From IMG/VR virus record IMGVR_UViG_3300034284_002793, positions 1 to 64,000 of that record: a stretch of DNA of 64,000 nucleotides; one strand, given 5' to 3'. The DNA is from an uncultured virus (IMG/VR IMGVR_UViG_3300034284_002793) (lineage: Duplodnaviria > Heunggongvirae > Uroviricota > Caudoviricetes). The number at the start of each line of letters is the position of its first letter. The first letter of the stretch is position 1. The notes beneath the pieces are model-generated. The model was given only the letters and a program-made list of their open reading frames with translations. It was not told the origin of the DNA and made no database searches. The position numbers and the translations under genes were made by a program. Positions 299 to 45,999 of this stretch are shown one piece after another.

Positions 299-685
299 TT
301 AAATTTTAGGCAAAATCAGCACTAGTCCCTCATGAACTTCTCTATGGCAGTTGGCGCACAATAGAATACATGGGGTGTTATTAATTTCATCTTTATATTT
401 TTGCTGATTATTGTCCCTACCTATTCGTGAAAATTCCAGCGTTTTACCTGCGGGATCAACGTGATGCACCTCTAGACCGGATAGGCACTTGTTATAGCCA
501 CAAATTTGACATTCACCACCCATGTATTCCATTAAAAAATATTTATTGTCTTTTCTTATATCACTTTTTCGCATATTTTTGCATGGTTTGCATTTGTAAT
601 ATTTTTTATCACCAACAACTTTATTAAGTTCATGCAATACATCTCCATGTACTTTGCAATTTTTGATTATTGATTTAGCATTCAT
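299..685 (-). CDS. HNH (homing-type) endonuclease with Zn-binding motifs, between two tRNAs
   Basis: CKVHG, CKPC, CQICG..LEVHH..LLCANCHREVH; start moved to ATG 685 because the track's upstream part lies inside tRNA-Asn. Confidence 0.85.
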   Translation of the reverse strand: MNAKSIIKNCKVHGDVLHELNKVVGDKKYYKCKPCKNMRKSDIRKDNKYFLMEYMGGECQICGYNKCLSGLEVHHVDPAGKTLEFSRIGRDNNQQKYKDEINNTPCILLCANCHREVHEGLVLILPKI

Positions 686-690
686 TAATT

Positions 691-765
691 TGGCTGTCGA
701 GGTAGGATTCGAACCTACAACCAATGAGTTAACAGCTCATCGCTCTACCATTGAGCTACTCGACA
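691..765 (-). tRNA. trnN: tRNA-Asn(GTT), CCA encoded
   Basis: Anticodon arm ATGAG-CTGTTAA-CTCAT; acceptor TGTCGAG/CTCGACA. Confidence 0.95.
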
Positions 766-2279: not shown

Positions 2280-2678
2280 TTATCCCAAAGTACAAAGATC
2301 AAAATCAATCAATACGGGTTTATTTCTAATCTTGCCAACATTATCAGAGAAAAGATCATATGTACTCCATCCCATTGATGAAACATTTTTTCTTAACGCG
2401 GACATTTCTTCATTATTAAGCCCACCCTGCATTGCGTGTTCAGTAACATAATAAAAATAGCGTCCTTTGGTTCCCATAAATAATGGTTTGGGGCCAAAGC
2501 CCATTTTGTGGGCAGCATCTTGTCGAAAAAAGCATCCCTTACATTTTAGTTGACTGGTATAGAATTTTACACCATATCGCCCACTAATTTGAATGTAGTA
2601 CCGAACAGTTGCGGAATCTGTTTGTTCATAAAACCGCAAATTGATTTTGTTGATGATTTTTTTAAGTTTAGCAATCAT
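2280..2678 (-). CDS. minimal protein-kinase-like protein
   Basis: GVK (beta3 Lys), DLFSDN catalytic-loop-like and LIDFD metal-binding-like motifs. Confidence 0.55.
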   Translation of the reverse strand: MIAKLKKIINKINLRFYEQTDSATVRYYIQISGRYGVKFYTSQLKCKGCFFRQDAAHKMGFGPKPLFMGTKGRYFYYVTEHAMQGGLNNEEMSALRKNVSSMGWSTYDLFSDNVGKIRNKPVLIDFDLCTLG

Positions 2679-2998
2679 GGCTCACAAACAAGAAGTGCAA
2701 GACTATTTCCGCTAAAAAACTCTTCTACTGTTTTTTTTGCTGTTTTGAAATCATATTTTCCATCGACCCATTTGCAACCACGATCATAAGCAGTGGCTTC
2801 TTCAATTGAAGAATACTCCTCATAAACAAAATCTTCGCCACAGCACTTGCAAGTTACATTATCTGGATCGCGCTTAAATAGTTCTTTAAAAGTCCTAACG
2901 GCTTCTCCAAGCGGCTCATCAATATATATGTGAGCATAAGGCGTCTTCAAATGACCACCACTATGCATATCCATGAAACGTGTAACAGTTTTCTTCAT
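2675..2998 (-). CDS. hypothetical protein (CxCC motif)
   Basis: MDMHSGG and TCKCCGEDF motifs; leaderless behind TTGACA-17-CATAAT. Confidence 0.75.
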   Translation of the reverse strand: MKKTVTRFMDMHSGGHLKTPYAHIYIDEPLGEAVRTFKELFKRDPDNVTCKCCGEDFVYEEYSSIEEATAYDRGCKWVDGKYDFKTAKKTVEEFFSGNSLALLVCEP

Positions 2999-3041
2999 AC
3001 CACCATTATGGGATTTTTTACAAATTTTGTCAATAGAAAAC

Positions 3042-3335
3042 TTGGTGTTTTTGTCGCACTTTGGACCAGATCAGAGTTGCGCCCCTGCTGGCATCAGTTA
3101 ACAATTTTTCTTGATTATAGAGTTAACCTCAGAACACCTAACCATTTATACAAGAGTTTTGGCCCATATAGCCTTGGTTTACCCAGAACCTACGCTCTTT
3201 TTTTTAATTACATATGTGCGCGCACACTATGTGATCTTATTTACTGTGAAACCTATATCATAACGATTATAGGGGGTAGAGTTGCATACCTTATAAGGCG
3301 ATCCCATTTTTTGGCTGGTCATCGCCACACCACCA
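3042..3335 (-). ncRNA. unassigned ~295-nt multi-helix RNA
   Basis: At least seven helices; preceded by GTGTATAAATA and boxA-like GTTCTTTAAAA; no credible minus-strand ORF. Confidence 0.65.
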
Positions 3336-3392
3336 TTTGCAAAATTTTAAAGAACTATTAATATTTATACACACTCTTTATAAAAAGATCAA

Positions 3393-3617
3393 TTATTTTT
3401 TAAAAATTTTTATTTCAAGAATGCGAAATTTTGTTCCCAAACCATGGCTTTTAAAATTTTCTACTTCTTGCGTTGCTTTTTTAACATTTTTATAATTGAT
3501 AAAATCGTGCCTAATCCAAGATTTAAACAAGTGGCTCCAGCATTCAATTTGGTAGTATTTATTCATTTTAAAAAAGTATTTCAAGTCCAGTTTCACCATA
3601 GTCAGGCATCCCAACAT
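3393..3617 (-). CDS. hypothetical protein
   Basis: ORF track; true start probably the later MNKYY. Confidence 0.5.
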   Translation of the reverse strand: MLGCLTMVKLDLKYFFKMNKYYQIECWSHLFKSWIRHDFINYKNVKKATQEVENFKSHGLGTKFRILEIKIFKK

Positions 3618-3825
3618 CCATAGAGTGATTGCTGATATATGGTTGCGCCATTTTTCCTTTGATATTTAATCGCTCATTAATCGGATAAATTGCAGTAATA
3701 ACGTGCTTGCCTTTGGTGAATTGCTGATTGCTATATTTAGTGCCTGTGACTTCACCCTTGACTTGAATTTTATCCAGATGTTCGCATGCTGTCAGCAGAA
3801 GGCATAGTAGTATTATTGCTTTCAT
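3568..3825 (-). CDS. putative lipoprotein
   Basis: MKAIILLCLLLTA-C lipobox. Confidence 0.7.
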   Translation of the reverse strand: MKAIILLCLLLTACEHLDKIQVKGEVTGTKYSNQQFTKGKHVITAIYPINERLNIKGKMAQPYISNHSMDVGMPDYGETGLEILF

Positions 3826-4644: not shown

Positions 4645-4963
4645 ACAATAAATCTATATCTTCATCTGATGCTTTTAAAATCCATTTGTTCATTTCGGGA
4701 ATTCTATCTAAGTAGTTTAATATGTCTAGGTTATACTTTTCTGTGAGAAAAGGCAATATTATAAAATAAAAGATGGATGGATCTTCGAGGTCGCCGTCAC
4801 GAAACCAGCTTGGCATATTCCAATCAAATATATATTTTGAGTCATAGCCGTGATCGTCCATGAAGTTATGGAACGTATTTACAAGATGATTTTTTGGTAG
4901 CTTATTGACAATTTTGCAGAAGCTGCAATTACAATCTTTTGTTTTGTGAGATTTCCCTTTCAT
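4625..4963 (-). CDS. hypothetical protein (N-terminal H..CNCSFC)
   Basis: ORF track, ATGA coupling to the upstream HNH gene. Confidence 0.7.
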   Translation of the reverse strand: MKGKSHKTKDCNCSFCKIVNKLPKNHLVNTFHNFMDDHGYDSKYIFDWNMPSWFRDGDLEDPSIFYFIILPFLTEKYNLDILNYLDRIPEMNKWILKASDEDIDLLFGGQYE

Positions 4964-5601
4964 TTTATTTTATCTAAAAATATTGCCCAATCAGGATTAA
5001 GAGCTTTAATAAGTAAATGCGCGGTCATAGGTCTTGGATTTTTTAGTTTGTATTTTGGACTGTACCCATGTTTGGACACAAATTCATCAATTGTCATGTC
5101 ATTTTTTAAACGATTAATTTTTGATGATGTGATGGCAAGATTATCCCAAGAATTTTTGCCGCCTTTTGATTTTGGATGCAAATGATCAATTGTTGCTTCG
5201 TTATAGGTGAGCTTTTCCCCCGTCCAAAAATCAACGCCATCATAACGTTCGTAAAGATTCTTTTTTGTAGGTCTAAAAGTTTTAATTGGAAGTTTATTAT
5301 AATTGCTTCCTACAATAGCCACTGTTGGAACGCGAATTTCAAGATTGATTGTGTGGATTGAAAACTCATCGTGCTCTCTTGGTGACAATGTGACCCACTC
5401 ATCCCAGCCAAGTGGGATAATTTCGCTTGGGCTAGCATAATCTGGCTCCCCATTATCATCTTCTAAATACTCTATCTTAATGGCTTTTTTGGGGTAATTA
5501 GCAGAATTCATATCTTCCAATACTTTCTTAACTGGAAGCGTACAGATGGGCAACCAAGAAGCATTAAGCATTAAAACTTTATGATTTAGAATATTAATCA
5601 T
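4960..5601 (-). CDS. HNH endonuclease (McrA-like)
   Basis: VLMLNASW.P N-terminus, IRVP, TIDHLHPKSKGG..SWDNL....IN..K. Confidence 0.85.
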   Translation of the reverse strand: MINILNHKVLMLNASWLPICTLPVKKVLEDMNSANYPKKAIKIEYLEDDNGEPDYASPSEIIPLGWDEWVTLSPREHDEFSIHTINLEIRVPTVAIVGSNYNKLPIKTFRPTKKNLYERYDGVDFWTGEKLTYNEATIDHLHPKSKGGKNSWDNLAITSSKINRLKNDMTIDEFVSKHGYSPKYKLKNPRPMTAHLLIKALNPDWAIFLDKIK

Positions 5602-27490: not shown

Positions 27491-27578
27491 CGGTGAGAGA
27501 GAGATTCGAACTCTCGGTAGACTTTTGGCCTACGGGACTTTAGCAAAGTCCTGCCTTAAACCGCTCGGCCATCTCACC
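27491..27578 (-). tRNA. trnS: tRNA-Ser(GCT)
   Basis: GGACT-TTGCTAA-AGTCC, long variable arm, G discriminator. Confidence 0.95.
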
Positions 27579-27604
27579 TAATAGCTAATAGCTAATAGCT
27601 AATA
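27578..27604. repeat. 7-bp tandem repeat (CTAATAG) x~3.9
   Basis: ctaatag ctaatag ctaatag ctaata. Confidence 0.9.
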
Positions 27605-27619
27605 TTTTTTTATAAAAAA

Positions 27620-28054
27620 TGGTGGAGGTGAGGGGAGTTGAACCCCTGTCCAATTAATTTACATTAAAAATTCTACATGTTTATGTGTTTTTGGCGTTTG
27701 ATTGGCTAAAGGCCACCTTGGCAACACAAGCCTAACTTTTAAAGCCTGCCTATGCAGAGAACGTTCTGCATAACGCCCAACAATTATTTTTACAATTAAG
27801 TTGGCTTGGTAAACCTATTGCGTTTCCAATGCTTTTAATAGGATCCAGACATTGGTTCTTAGGCTGCTAAGAGCATTTCGTCCTCAACGCCAGCGAGAAA
27901 CTCGTCAGCGTTGTTGAAGATATACTCGGCTTCAGCCAAGATATCAGAAGTATTATCTTCTGCGTTTAGTTTTTAATCGATTTTTAACGAGGCCGTCGAT
28001 CAACCTCGACATGCATTTTTAATTTCAACTAGCTGTCGAAACCAATACACCCCC
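27620..28054 (-). ncRNA. ssrA: tmRNA
   Basis: 5' GGGGGTG..TTCGAC, 3' T-arm and CACCTCC-ACCA with G3.U70; tag frame 27963..27859 ending LLAA-TAA. Confidence 0.97.
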
Positions 28055-28062
28055 CCAAAAAG

Positions 28063-28138
28063 TGGAGCCTGAGGTCGGACTCGAACCGACGACCACGCGA
28101 TTACAAATCGAGCGCTCTACCAACTGAGCTACACAGGC
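28063..28138 (-). tRNA. trnT: tRNA-Thr(TGT), CCA encoded
   Basis: Loop TTTGTAA; GCCTG../..CAGGC-T-CCA acceptor. Confidence 0.92.
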
Positions 28139-28146
28139 ATAAAAAT

Positions 28147-28220
28147 TGGAGCGGAATGAGAGAATCGAACTCTCGTTACCTGCTTGGAAGGCAGAAGTTT
28201 TACCATTAAACTAATCCCGC
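28147..28220 (-). tRNA. trnG: tRNA-Gly(TCC), CCA encoded
   Basis: GCGGGAT acceptor, loop CTTCCAA, U discriminator. Confidence 0.95.
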
Positions 28221-28224
28221 AAAA

Positions 28225-28297
28225 TCGGGCAGAGAGGACTCGAACCTCCGGTACCCTGCTCCCAAAGCAGGTGCCATAGCCACTAGGCGACTGCCCG
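28225..28297 (-). tRNA. trnP: tRNA-Pro(TGG)
   Basis: CGGGCAG/CTGCCCG-A; CCTGC-TTTGGGA-GCAGG. Confidence 0.95.
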
Positions 28298-28302
28298 TTA
28301 AA

Positions 28303-28396
28303 TGGTGGTTGATGTGGGAATCGAACCCACGCTCGGCCCTCATCTAGGGCACACAGTTTATAAAACTGTCGATGCTTCCAATTACATTAATCAACC
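28303..28396 (-). tRNA. tRNA with TAT anticodon (Ile) and long variable arm, CCA encoded
   Basis: GGTTGAT/ATCAACC-A-CCA; ACAGT-TTTATAA-ACTGT; V arm GCCCT-AGATG-AGGGC. Confidence 0.88.
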
Positions 28397-28403
28397 ATAA
28401 AAT

Positions 28404-28490
28404 TGGTAGCGGGGGTGGGATTTGAACCCACGAGGCCAAAGGGCGGTACGTTATGAGCGTACTGAGCTACCAGACTGCTCGCACCCCGCA
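28404..28490 (-). tRNA. atypical initiator-like tRNA(CAT) with variable arm, CCA encoded
   Basis: TGCGGGG/CCCCGCT with 1:72 mismatch; GAGC/GCTC D stem; GTACG-CTCATAA-CGTAC; 14-nt variable region. Confidence 0.85.
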
Positions 28491-45302: not shown

Positions 45303-45329
45303 AAATTTTTAAAATTTTTTTTGATCTTT

Positions 45330-45716
45330 TAACGTCCGTTCTTAAACACTCCTATCTAGTCAAGTCATTTTATCCGTCCTGGCTTCTCAATCTGTTACCC
45401 TGGGGACAAGGCTGAGTTTACTTCTAGACGAATCCTCTCGGTGGACCTAACATTCTCAGAATGTGATCGATCAATTTGTTATCGTACAGTTGTTTATACC
45501 ATACATCTATATATTTCTATATAGTTCAGACTATATCTTGGTACCAAAAGTTAATTTGGCACACAGGGCGCTCTTGGGCAGTTTTATTGTTGGGACTCAA
45601 CCGCCTAGTCGTTACACCTTCTGTCCTATCTTTCCCAGACAGCTTGGCTCGGTATTGTCTTTTTGGCAAGTTATTCACCAACGAAGATATCCACCGAATT
45701 CACCCCGTAAACGCTA
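45330..45716 (-). ncRNA. ORF-less group I intron ribozyme (P7.1-containing, IA-like), not within a gene; candidate permuted form
   Basis: P AATTCGGTGGA (45700-45690), Q AATACCGAGCCAAG, R GTAACGACTA, S AAGATATAGTC (45539-45529); P3 CGGGGTG/CGCCCTG, P7 GACTA/TAGTC, P9 CTATATA-GAAA-TATATAG; terminal G 45472. Confidence 0.88.
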
Positions 45717-45724
45717 TTTAAATT

Positions 45725-45771
45725 TTTTAAAGAACTTGAGTAGATTTTACTACTAGCAAATACAATTACAC
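45725..45771 (-). promoter_or_regulatory. GTGTAA promoter motif, hairpin and boxA-like element
   Basis: GTGTAA (45771-45766), AGTAG-TAAAAT-CTACT hairpin, GTTCTTTAAAA (45735-45725). Confidence 0.6.
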
Positions 45772-45786
45772 TAAAAAATGTAGCTT

Positions 45787-45999
45787 TTACCTTTTGTTAT
45801 CATTTTTTTCAAAATCCCAGCAGTAATGACAAATTTCTGGAGTTACTTTAAATATATCCCTTTTTAAACATTTATAGCCAGAGTCTGTATAATCTCCGCC
45901 TTGACAGCTGCATCTACGGACAGTAACAGTTTCTTCTTTTTCAGATTTGTGCTTGCAGTTTTCGAATTTATATTCGCCCGTCATATTTTCTTCGCTCAT
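45787..45999 (-). CDS. small Cys-rich protein
   Basis: C.H..CSC..C..C..C. Confidence 0.7.
   Translation of the reverse strand: MSEENMTGEYKFENCKHKSEKEETVTVRRCSCQGGDYTDSGYKCLKRDIFKVTPEICHYCWDFEKNDNKR

Follow-up and report, generated by a model that had tools for sequence, protein, structure and literature searches.

What is encoded in a 394-nucleotide (nt) gap between two open reading frames (ORFs) of a phage in which almost every gene lies on the minus strand? The gap, located on this gene strand between ORFs 3393-3617 and 2675-2998, belongs to a window of 64,000 nt (the whole stretch analyzed; approx. 35% G+C) comprising the first 64 kb of the 132,627-bp record of an uncultured virus (IMG/VR IMGVR_UViG_3300034284_002793; estimated completeness 88%), and the only minus-strand ORF within it has 33 amino acids (aa). 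The results described below make it very probable that positions 3036-3357 of the minus strand constitute an independent gene whose product is a stable non-coding RNA (ncRNA) with extensive structure, approx. 300-320 nt in length, for which a transcription logic can be proposed. The predicted RNA is a new family without an Rfam entry, within an already known kind, i.e. the structured phage RNAs found near tRNAs. An initial annotation had suggested an undescribed class of structured phage ncRNA of approx. 295 nt at this place. The conserved element (3037-3338) agrees with that size, and the suggestion of a new class is upheld by the absence of a matching Rfam 15 family, strong covariation, the lack of a conserved reading frame and RNA-library contigs confined to the element.

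Homologues were gathered mostly with the most conserved block of the element itself (box 1, hairpin H1 in the list below). In pattern scans with conserved blocks, family members accounted for 15 of the 21 viral matches, all 29 metagenome matches and one of four genome-contig matches (a 3.1-kb contig of a metagenome-assembled genome). With an independent pattern derived from the 3′ part, all 15 viral matches were family members; used as an anchor, the 3′ pattern returned contigs already known via the canonical box, plus one truncated locus. The anchor GGTTAGGTGTTCTGA yielded seven family contigs among 25 matches, one of which (L108) has a variant H1 loop, and a middle anchor yielded 13 among 15, all with the canonical box 1. 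After the removal of duplicates, 34 distinct homologous cores were available. When the whole records of five related phages were searched, four contained a single copy each (72-76% identity over 3037-3338), and BLAST against 50,697 phage records gave no match. The family is so far known only from a clade of large uncultured phages, mostly of freshwater origin.

The elements of the predicted RNA are as follows (letters re-read from the sequence; all motifs and helix letters named in the initial annotation were found where it had placed them):

3036..3357, minus strand: whole inferred transcript of approx. 320 nt, its start placed from the −10 hexamer; conserved part 3037-3338
3297..3326, minus strand: H0, 5′ hairpin GGCGAU/AUCGCC of the variable 5′ domain (GGCGAT/ATCGCC, 3321-3326 / 3297-3302); variants GGCGGU/ACCGUC and GGCGGU/ACCGCC, replaced or extended in other members
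3274..3291, minus strand: H1, box 1, AGGUA[UGCAACUC]UACCC, identical in all 34 cores; variant loop known in L108
3252..3273, minus strand: H2, hairpin CCUAUA/UAUAGG (CCTATA/TATAGG, 3268-3273 / 3252-3257), the site of branched inserts in other members
3240..3251, minus strand: Hm, 3-bp mini-hairpin UUU[CACAGU]AAA, with 3/3 pairs in all 34 cores
3210..3232, minus strand: H3, putative variable hairpin (ACATA..GTGCGCGCAC..TATGT, 3210-3232), a hairpin-capable segment that differs in sequence and length among members
3193..3205, minus strand: A-rich conserved linker ending in AGAGCG (conserved alignment columns)
3151..3186, minus strand: H4, CUGGGU (3181-3186) with ACUCUUG (3151-3157), enclosing H5
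3161..3173, minus strand: H5, hairpin GGCU[AUAUG]GGCC, with 4/4 pairs of many types in 25/32 cores
3044..3138, minus strand: 3′ domain closed by H6, GGUGUU (3133-3138) with AACACC (3044-3049) (GGTGTT/AACACC as DNA), with 5-6/6 pairs in all 34 cores
3092..3132, minus strand: H7a (CUGA/GAUG) and H7 (GGUUAAC/GUUAACU; GTTAAC arms 3122-3128 / 3096-3102) with loop; both-sided changes in 7/7 H7 pairs
3066..3091, minus strand: H8 (CCAG/CUGG; CCAG/CTGG, 3088-3091 / 3066-3069), 4/4 pairs in 32/33 cores, and H9 (CAGGG[GCGCAA]CUCUG), 5/5 pairs in 24/33
3054..3059, minus strand: 3′ strand of the pseudoknot, UGCG (3055-3058) with CGCA of the H9 hexaloop (3078-3081); both-sided change at three pairs
3072-3079 and 3278-3285, plus coordinates: two copies of AGAGTTGC

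Starting at conserved flanks, we read the helices outward in a fixed register, the exception being the choice of a 5- or 7-nt loop in H5. In the resulting 31-row alignment, 86.6% of 1585 cells contained standard pairs, compared with 31.5-43.7% when the 3′ partners were slid by 1-3 columns. Changes on both sides were observed in 29 of 53 pairs (155 cells, against 52.9 expected from shuffles), and none of 500 shuffles reached the observed values. RNAalifold applied to a plain MAFFT alignment gave 19 pairs, ten of them with compensatory changes, and the outward-anchored reading yields the same helices. Eleven helices are supported in this way, one of them a pseudoknot. Lack of covariation, which according to the initial annotation would argue against an ncRNA, was thus not what we found: compensatory changes extend across 31-34 distinct homologues.

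The individual helices illustrate this well. At least 4 of the 7 positions of H2 pair in all 34 cores in spite of 16 different 5′ strands, with both-sided changes in 6/7 pairs, and Hm occurs as UUC/GAA, UUU/AAA, UUU/GAA, UCC/GGA, UCU/AGA and UCU/GGA. H4 is fully paired (6/6) in the types CUGAGU/ACUCAG, CCGGGU/ACCCGG and CUAGGU/ACCUAG; H6 shows one double change (AGUGUU/AACACU); H7a reads CUUC/GAAG, CGGA/GCCG or CUGA/CCAG in subsets of members; and five pair types were found in H8 and approx. ten in H9. Two members in which the H9 loop reads CUACGA carry a downstream UCGUAG, so that all six pairs of the pseudoknot can form. No pairing partner for the A-rich linker (3193-3205) was found in the family alignment. 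Six of the seven helices proposed in the initial annotation remain; the seventh, AAGAG/CTCTT, was replaced by a CUGGGU/ACYC pairing, because the H4 types reveal that its CUC(U) segment pairs with CUGGGU (3181-3186). G-U pairs are frequent (e.g. GU:27, GU:9 and GU:8 at single pairs); read on the opposite strand they would become A-C mismatches, which identifies the minus strand as the RNA strand.

The core, i.e. the conserved 3′ part of approx. 260 nt, is composed of a near-invariant hairpin (AGGUA[UGCAACUC]UACCU in the family), several covarying helices and a 3′ domain with a three-way junction, locked by a pseudoknot between loop and tail. The 5′ domain upstream of box 1 diverges: there is one hairpin in the window, close relatives add a second, some members have a small hairpin only, and a divergent group carries approx. 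300 nt of extra conserved modules 5′ of box 1.

Several further interactions were considered and rejected. Pairing of the 5′ leader with the 3′ tail into a terminal helix (AAAAUUU/AAAUUUU) is compatible with group 1 and incompatible with members including L085 and L063. Binding to a T-loop or tRNA elbow through two GCAAC boxes was abandoned, the second box being accounted for by the pseudoknot, and symmetric kissing through the Hm loop was discarded, since the quasi-palindrome is lost in variants. Sites in the phage genome (G000) to which the H1 loop might bind are at chance level, with GAGTTGCA occurring three times, including the box itself and one site within a 373-aa ORF.

Could the stretch nevertheless encode a protein? 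An ORF of 143 aa is indeed present on the plus strand (2930-3361). Its product matches no Pfam family and it overlaps a 107-aa gene on the opposite strand. Moreover, the core lengths (255-313 nt) fall into modulo 3 classes of 12, 11 and 11, with no preference for multiples of three, and only 10 of the 34 can be read without a stop over 80% of the length, in frames that differ among them. Taken together with the compensatory substitutions in the stems, these data make a coding function extremely improbable. The codon-type conservation of this ORF that the initial annotation had named as the sign of a coding sequence is missing; the ORF is not conserved.

We then compared the element with known RNAs. 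A scan of the whole window against Rfam 15 at gathering score revealed nothing in its region, and a narrow scan of 2900-3500 with 4227 models (E≤10) gave only ARRPOF (10.4 bits, cut-off 127.2) and EGFOA-assoc-1 (9.9 bits, cut-off 224.5), so that the Rfam search suggested in the initial annotation found no family by either standard. The models of RNase P RNA, tmRNA, 6S RNA and signal recognition particle RNA did not match within 2900-3500, nor did group I intron RF00028 (P3-P9 core), of which the same type of scan finds one at 45507-45789. The small subunit (SSU) rRNA model gave no match at E≤10. When 17 related loci (31,557 bases) were scanned against Rfam with lax settings, the matches were tRNAs, a tmRNA and a single chance match, and nothing else.

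The closest parallels are GOLLD and ROOL, with which the initial annotation had also compared the element. GOLLD is described as a phage or prophage RNA, often located beside tRNA islands (one studied GOLLD adjoins a Met-tRNA), first seen in lake metagenomes and frequently longer than 800 nt, with an RNA of approx. 800 nt forming a 14-mer cage (bioRxiv 10.1101/2024.12.08.627333). ROOL is presented as a large phage or prophage RNA (mean 581 nt) found near tRNAs, with multistem junctions and pseudoknots (PMC5737381). According to these sources, both form RNA-only cages, and GOLLD is pulled down with ribosomes (bioRxiv 10.1101/2024.12.08.627333; PMC5737381).

The RNA described here resembles GOLLD in its lake origin, in its occurrence in phages with tRNA clusters, with tRNA-Met directly downstream in relatives, and, in qualitative terms only, in having a 3′ region that is conserved and a 5′ region that is variable. 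In contrast to GOLLD, it is approx. 300 nt long (approx. 600 nt at most among members, compared with >800 nt for many GOLLD RNAs) and is placed upstream of the tRNA. With ROOL it shares the phage setting near tRNAs, the junctions and a pseudoknot, while its secondary structure is unrelated and its length is well below the ROOL mean. The comparison made in the initial annotation was apt with respect to context, but the covariance models do not match the element: GOLLD RF02032, run over five phage genomes (G000-G004), leaves it unmatched (best score anywhere 14.4 bits, cut-off 150), and ROOL RF03087 (cut-off 99.1 bits) has no match in the five genomes, a weak test, as control genomes also gave none. 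Neither GOLLD nor ROOL appears among the Rfam matches of the element region (E up to 10) or of the 17 related loci (E up to 1).

It is conceivable that the element is a very divergent or miniaturized GOLLD, ROOL, RNase P RNA or group I intron that the covariance models missed. The GOLLD-like context (phage-borne, adjoining a Met-tRNA, conserved 3′ and variable 5′ region, lakes) would fit such an origin, and the filters can lose real elements, since the whole-window gathering scan overlooked a genuine group I ribozyme at 45.5 kb. However, the narrow scan recovered this ribozyme at 71.6 bits as a positive control, while lax narrow scans gave at most 10.4 bits at the region and no such RNA in the 17 related loci, and the GOLLD and ROOL models found nothing on the element in the five genomes. 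We regard this explanation as very unlikely.

A similarity of context only, judged by description, links the new RNA to RNAC and RNAD of T4. These are of approx. 120-140 nt, and hence much smaller. Like it, they are small stable RNAs derived from a phage tRNA region (PMC3014915).

The following signals surround the predicted RNA:

3387..3392, minus strand: −35-like hexamer TTGATC, 17 nt upstream of TATAAA
3364..3369, minus strand: −10-like hexamer TATAAA, located within GTGTATAAATA; TATAAA, TATAAG, TATATA or TATAGA in relatives
3362-3372, minus strand: GTGTATAAATA, re-read; contains the −10-like hexamer
3345..3355, minus strand: boxA candidate GTTCTTTAAAA (also GUUCUUUAAAA), a few bases downstream of the promoter, a perfect fit to GYTCTTTAANA
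3036..3043, minus strand: 3′ tail AAGUUUUC, a U-run, followed by the promoter of the next gene
3005..3033, minus strand: sigma70-like promoter of the next gene, outside the RNA (TTGACA-17-CATAAT, 11/12 matches)

The initial annotation had assigned a late-type promoter to the RNA. The sequence is better read as a promoter of the sigma70 type and not as a T4 late promoter, because the −10 hexamer is not fixed as the T4 late TATAAATA and varies among relatives, whereas the −35 hexamer is conserved. In 14 close relatives the putative promoter consists of TTGACA, a 17-nt spacer and TATAAR (10-11 of 12 matches) and ends 46-113 nt before box 1. The sigma70-like promoter sequence that the initial annotation noted for the next gene is present (3033-3005).

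The boxA-like motif of the initial annotation also stood up to closer analysis. It fits perfectly the published BoxA consensus GYTCTTTAANA, which was derived for gamma-proteobacteria (PMC5725501). The motif of the relatives reads GTTCTTTGAAA or GATCTTTGAAA, and thus resembles the consensus AUGAUCUUUGAAA given for B. subtilis rrn operons (PMC13753749); the 16S leader and the 16S-23S spacer of a bacterial locus (L086) carry GTTCTTTGAAA. The pattern [AG][AT]TCTTT[GA]A occurs upstream of the RNA in every one of the 32 members whose upstream sequence extends over 159 nt or more (the other two have 19 and 63 nt), 40-327 nt before box 1, and in group 1 just after the −10 hexamer. The candidate boxA therefore appears comparable with that of rRNA operon leaders in its fit to the consensus and its location just behind the promoter of an untranslated RNA, and differs in heading a phage ncRNA gene rather than an rRNA operon.

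These features suggest the following course of events. Host RNA polymerase would start at the TTGATC-17-TATAAA promoter, so that boxA would be among the first bases transcribed. By analogy with rRNA operons, boxA may load NusB/NusE and other Nus factors, and the modified polymerase could make transcription of the untranslated RNA resistant to Rho and possibly aid its folding. In relatives, RNase P cleavage at the tRNA-Met gene located approx. 10 nt downstream would set the 3′ end, while other members would end via a hairpin and U-run and the RNA of the window via its U-run. The last and most speculative step is that, during infection, the RNA folds by itself into a particle serving as a scaffold in the sphere of phage tRNAs and translation, with the invariant H1 loop as a contact site. 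Such a scaffold function, a role discussed for GOLLD and ROOL, is a possibility by analogy that we hold with considerable doubt.

The downstream sequences raise the question of whether the element itself lacks a function and merely forms a structured 5′ leader or spacer in a phage tRNA operon, i.e. a processing substrate thrown away once RNase P has cut. A tRNA-Met gene begins 2-4 nt past the aligned element in G001-G004, L058 and L072, its 5′ sequence is found approx. 10 nt after H6 in 13 of 33 distinct members (the tRNA being confirmed at six loci), and in one further member tRNA-Asn directly follows the RNA; the promoter and boxA would then serve the whole operon. In the window, however, the next gene encodes a protein and has a separate promoter, and in other members a hairpin and U-run come after the RNA (read from the sequences). 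Eleven helices, a pseudoknot and a near-invariant 18-nt box kept across approx. 30% divergence would not be expected of a discarded leader, and the RNA contigs described below cover the element itself. We consider this explanation unlikely.

Hints of expression of the RNA gene were found in sequencing runs. Lake-water metagenomes contain the entire 1-kb stretch around the element, and 14-28% of its words occur in five metatranscriptome runs from lakes. Four of the runs gave contigs on positions 2700-3700 (266, 225, 179 and 163 nt, with no mismatches and one inserted T), all located within 3055-3325; the rest of 2700-3700 had no RNA contig, an absence that was not counted as evidence. Two more RNA contigs were similar at the level of 90-95%, and their loose ends fit a second family member. 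A discrete RNA of relatively high abundance would give such a pattern, although it counts as a weak hint only.

A number of observations weigh against the presence of a structured RNA gene. The single-sequence fold of the minus strand (minimum free energy −90.3 kcal/mol, z = −1.27) was equalled by 14 of 100 shuffles, and that of the plus strand gave z = −0.96; a single sequence alone is thus at chance level, and support for the structure comes from comparison. The stem of H1 is invariant and lacks covariation support, and as most of H6 is invariant too, covariation neither supports nor contradicts the H1 stem and most of the H6 pairs. The invariance of box 1 is, in addition, partly circular, since most homologues were collected with this box. 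The boxA pattern occurs four times in the window (two on the gene strand) where 1.5 are expected, and 9 of 100 shuffles reach four; as a single site is not significant alone, the argument is based on conservation and position and not on the count. The boxA candidate also starts only a few bases past the presumed start of transcription. The RNA contigs provide neither strand nor ends, and the four runs share year and habitat and possibly come from one campaign. Finally, not every copy keeps the full fold, as seen in the metagenome member L085, which lacks the H9 hexaloop, has AGUGCC in place of AGAGCG and a weak H4 (3/6 pairs), and may be a decaying copy.

The compact pseudoknotted domain and the near-invariant 8-nt loop could also indicate a ribozyme, or an RNA docking on the ribosome or one of its proteins, instead of a passive scaffold. 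The loop UGCAACUC is identical to a hairpin loop of the 16S rRNA at L086 (GGAGTC TGCAACTC GACTCC), the order of promoter, boxA, RNA and tRNA is rrn-like, and GOLLD is bound by ribosomes in pull-downs (bioRxiv 10.1101/2024.12.08.627333). Against this, the SSU model did not match, nhmmer with the family against real 16S rRNA gave no match, a test of colinear shared words was not significant (22-223 of 300 shuffles were as good), and no self-cleaving ribozyme family matches in the region. A catalytic or docking function is, on balance, improbable. The more specific idea that the element is a mimic or fragment of 16S rRNA, prompted by the loop UGCAACUC, by GTGAATAAG compared with GTGAATACG and by CTTGTAC in the 16S rRNA of L086, was rejected. 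The SSU and nhmmer searches were blank, the colinear word chains of six members were no better than shuffles (35, 22, 223, 104, 64 and 35 of 300), and the identity of the loop alone remains.

The phage that carries the proposed RNA gene encodes a family B DNA polymerase, a DnaB-like helicase, a UvsX-like recombinase, ribonucleotide reductase and baseplate-wedge proteins, and 13 tRNA genes plus a tmRNA were detected in its sequence. The tmRNA (152.7 bits; window 27620-28054, minus strand) lies within a group of six clustered tRNA genes, just past which there is a seventh (27491-28490), and a pattern scan of the window found no boxA pattern upstream of this cluster. ORFs of the HNH endonuclease type occur among tRNA genes at 4960-5601 and 299-724 (minus strand); one ORF of this kind (213 aa) matches Pfam HNH_4/HNH, and another (141 aa) displays a CxxC..HH pattern, read from its sequence alone.

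The upstream neighborhood of the element is conserved (a 57-aa gene precedes it in 13 loci and an 85-aa lipoprotein-like gene in 15), whereas the downstream side differs. In the window, a 74-aa ORF (3393-3617, minus strand), without a Pfam or PHROG family, shares sequence with the 3′ end of the 85-aa lipoprotein-like gene (3568-3825) and stops exactly at the −35 hexamer of the RNA. Since the promoter comes straight after the lipoprotein-like gene in relatives, this ORF is unlikely to be a gene.

On the other side lies the gene of a 107-aa cysteine-containing protein (2675-2998, minus strand). Its relatives led to seven viral loci, of which two are identical to the window and five have a small ORF in place of the element. 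The relatives in L004-L008 are located approx. 25 kb from the RNA in related genomes and have in front of them a conserved ORF of 58-70 aa, which is absent from the window. In the lineage of the window, a rearrangement has brought the RNA gene next to the 107-aa gene.

The group I ribozyme core mentioned above (RF00028; 71.6 bits, cut-off 50, E 4e-18; 45507-45789, minus strand) was missed by the whole-window gathering scan and recovered by narrow scans. It is intergenic, in an ORF-poor gap (45303-45786), and no long 3′ exon frame follows it. Its P2-P3 insert contains a cassette of a −10-like hexamer and boxA (TAAAAT..AAGTTCTTTAAAA, boxA at 45725-45735), as in the RNA of the element, and the conservation of this locus with the relative G003 begins at the cassette. 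These features point to a free-standing group I-like core, led by a promoter and boxA, and away from a splicing intron. Separate stretches resembling the group I core were found four times in G003 (L131-L135), once in G004 (L130), where a cassette match (L014) is located just upstream of the core, and none in G001, G002 and the G005 fragment.

GOLLD, ROOL and the T4 RNAs RNAC and RNAD have long been without an assigned function. The family described here adds a compact, strongly covarying case of approx. 300 nt, with a pseudoknot, hints of expression and a clear transcription unit (promoter, candidate boxA, RNA, then tRNA or hairpin and U-run), and its small size makes it tractable for structure determination and partner pull-downs. 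The candidate boxA suggests that phages may borrow the antitermination and folding signal of rRNA for their own stable RNAs. The −10/boxA cassette heads both this RNA and the group I-like core in the genome, and this may be a general design. A bolder view, which we think rather unlikely, is that the RNA joins GOLLD and ROOL as a third class of ornate phage RNA, unrelated to these in structure and produced from a miniature rRNA-style operon (sigma70 promoter, boxA, structured RNA, tRNA). Its near-invariant hairpin loop, which matches a 16S rRNA hairpin loop letter for letter, and the pseudoknotted 3′ domain would then allow it to dock on the translation machinery of the host or to self-assemble during infection. 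If this were true, a molecule of approx. 300 nt would suffice to study the logic common to the three classes, i.e. stable RNA particles made beside phage tRNAs.

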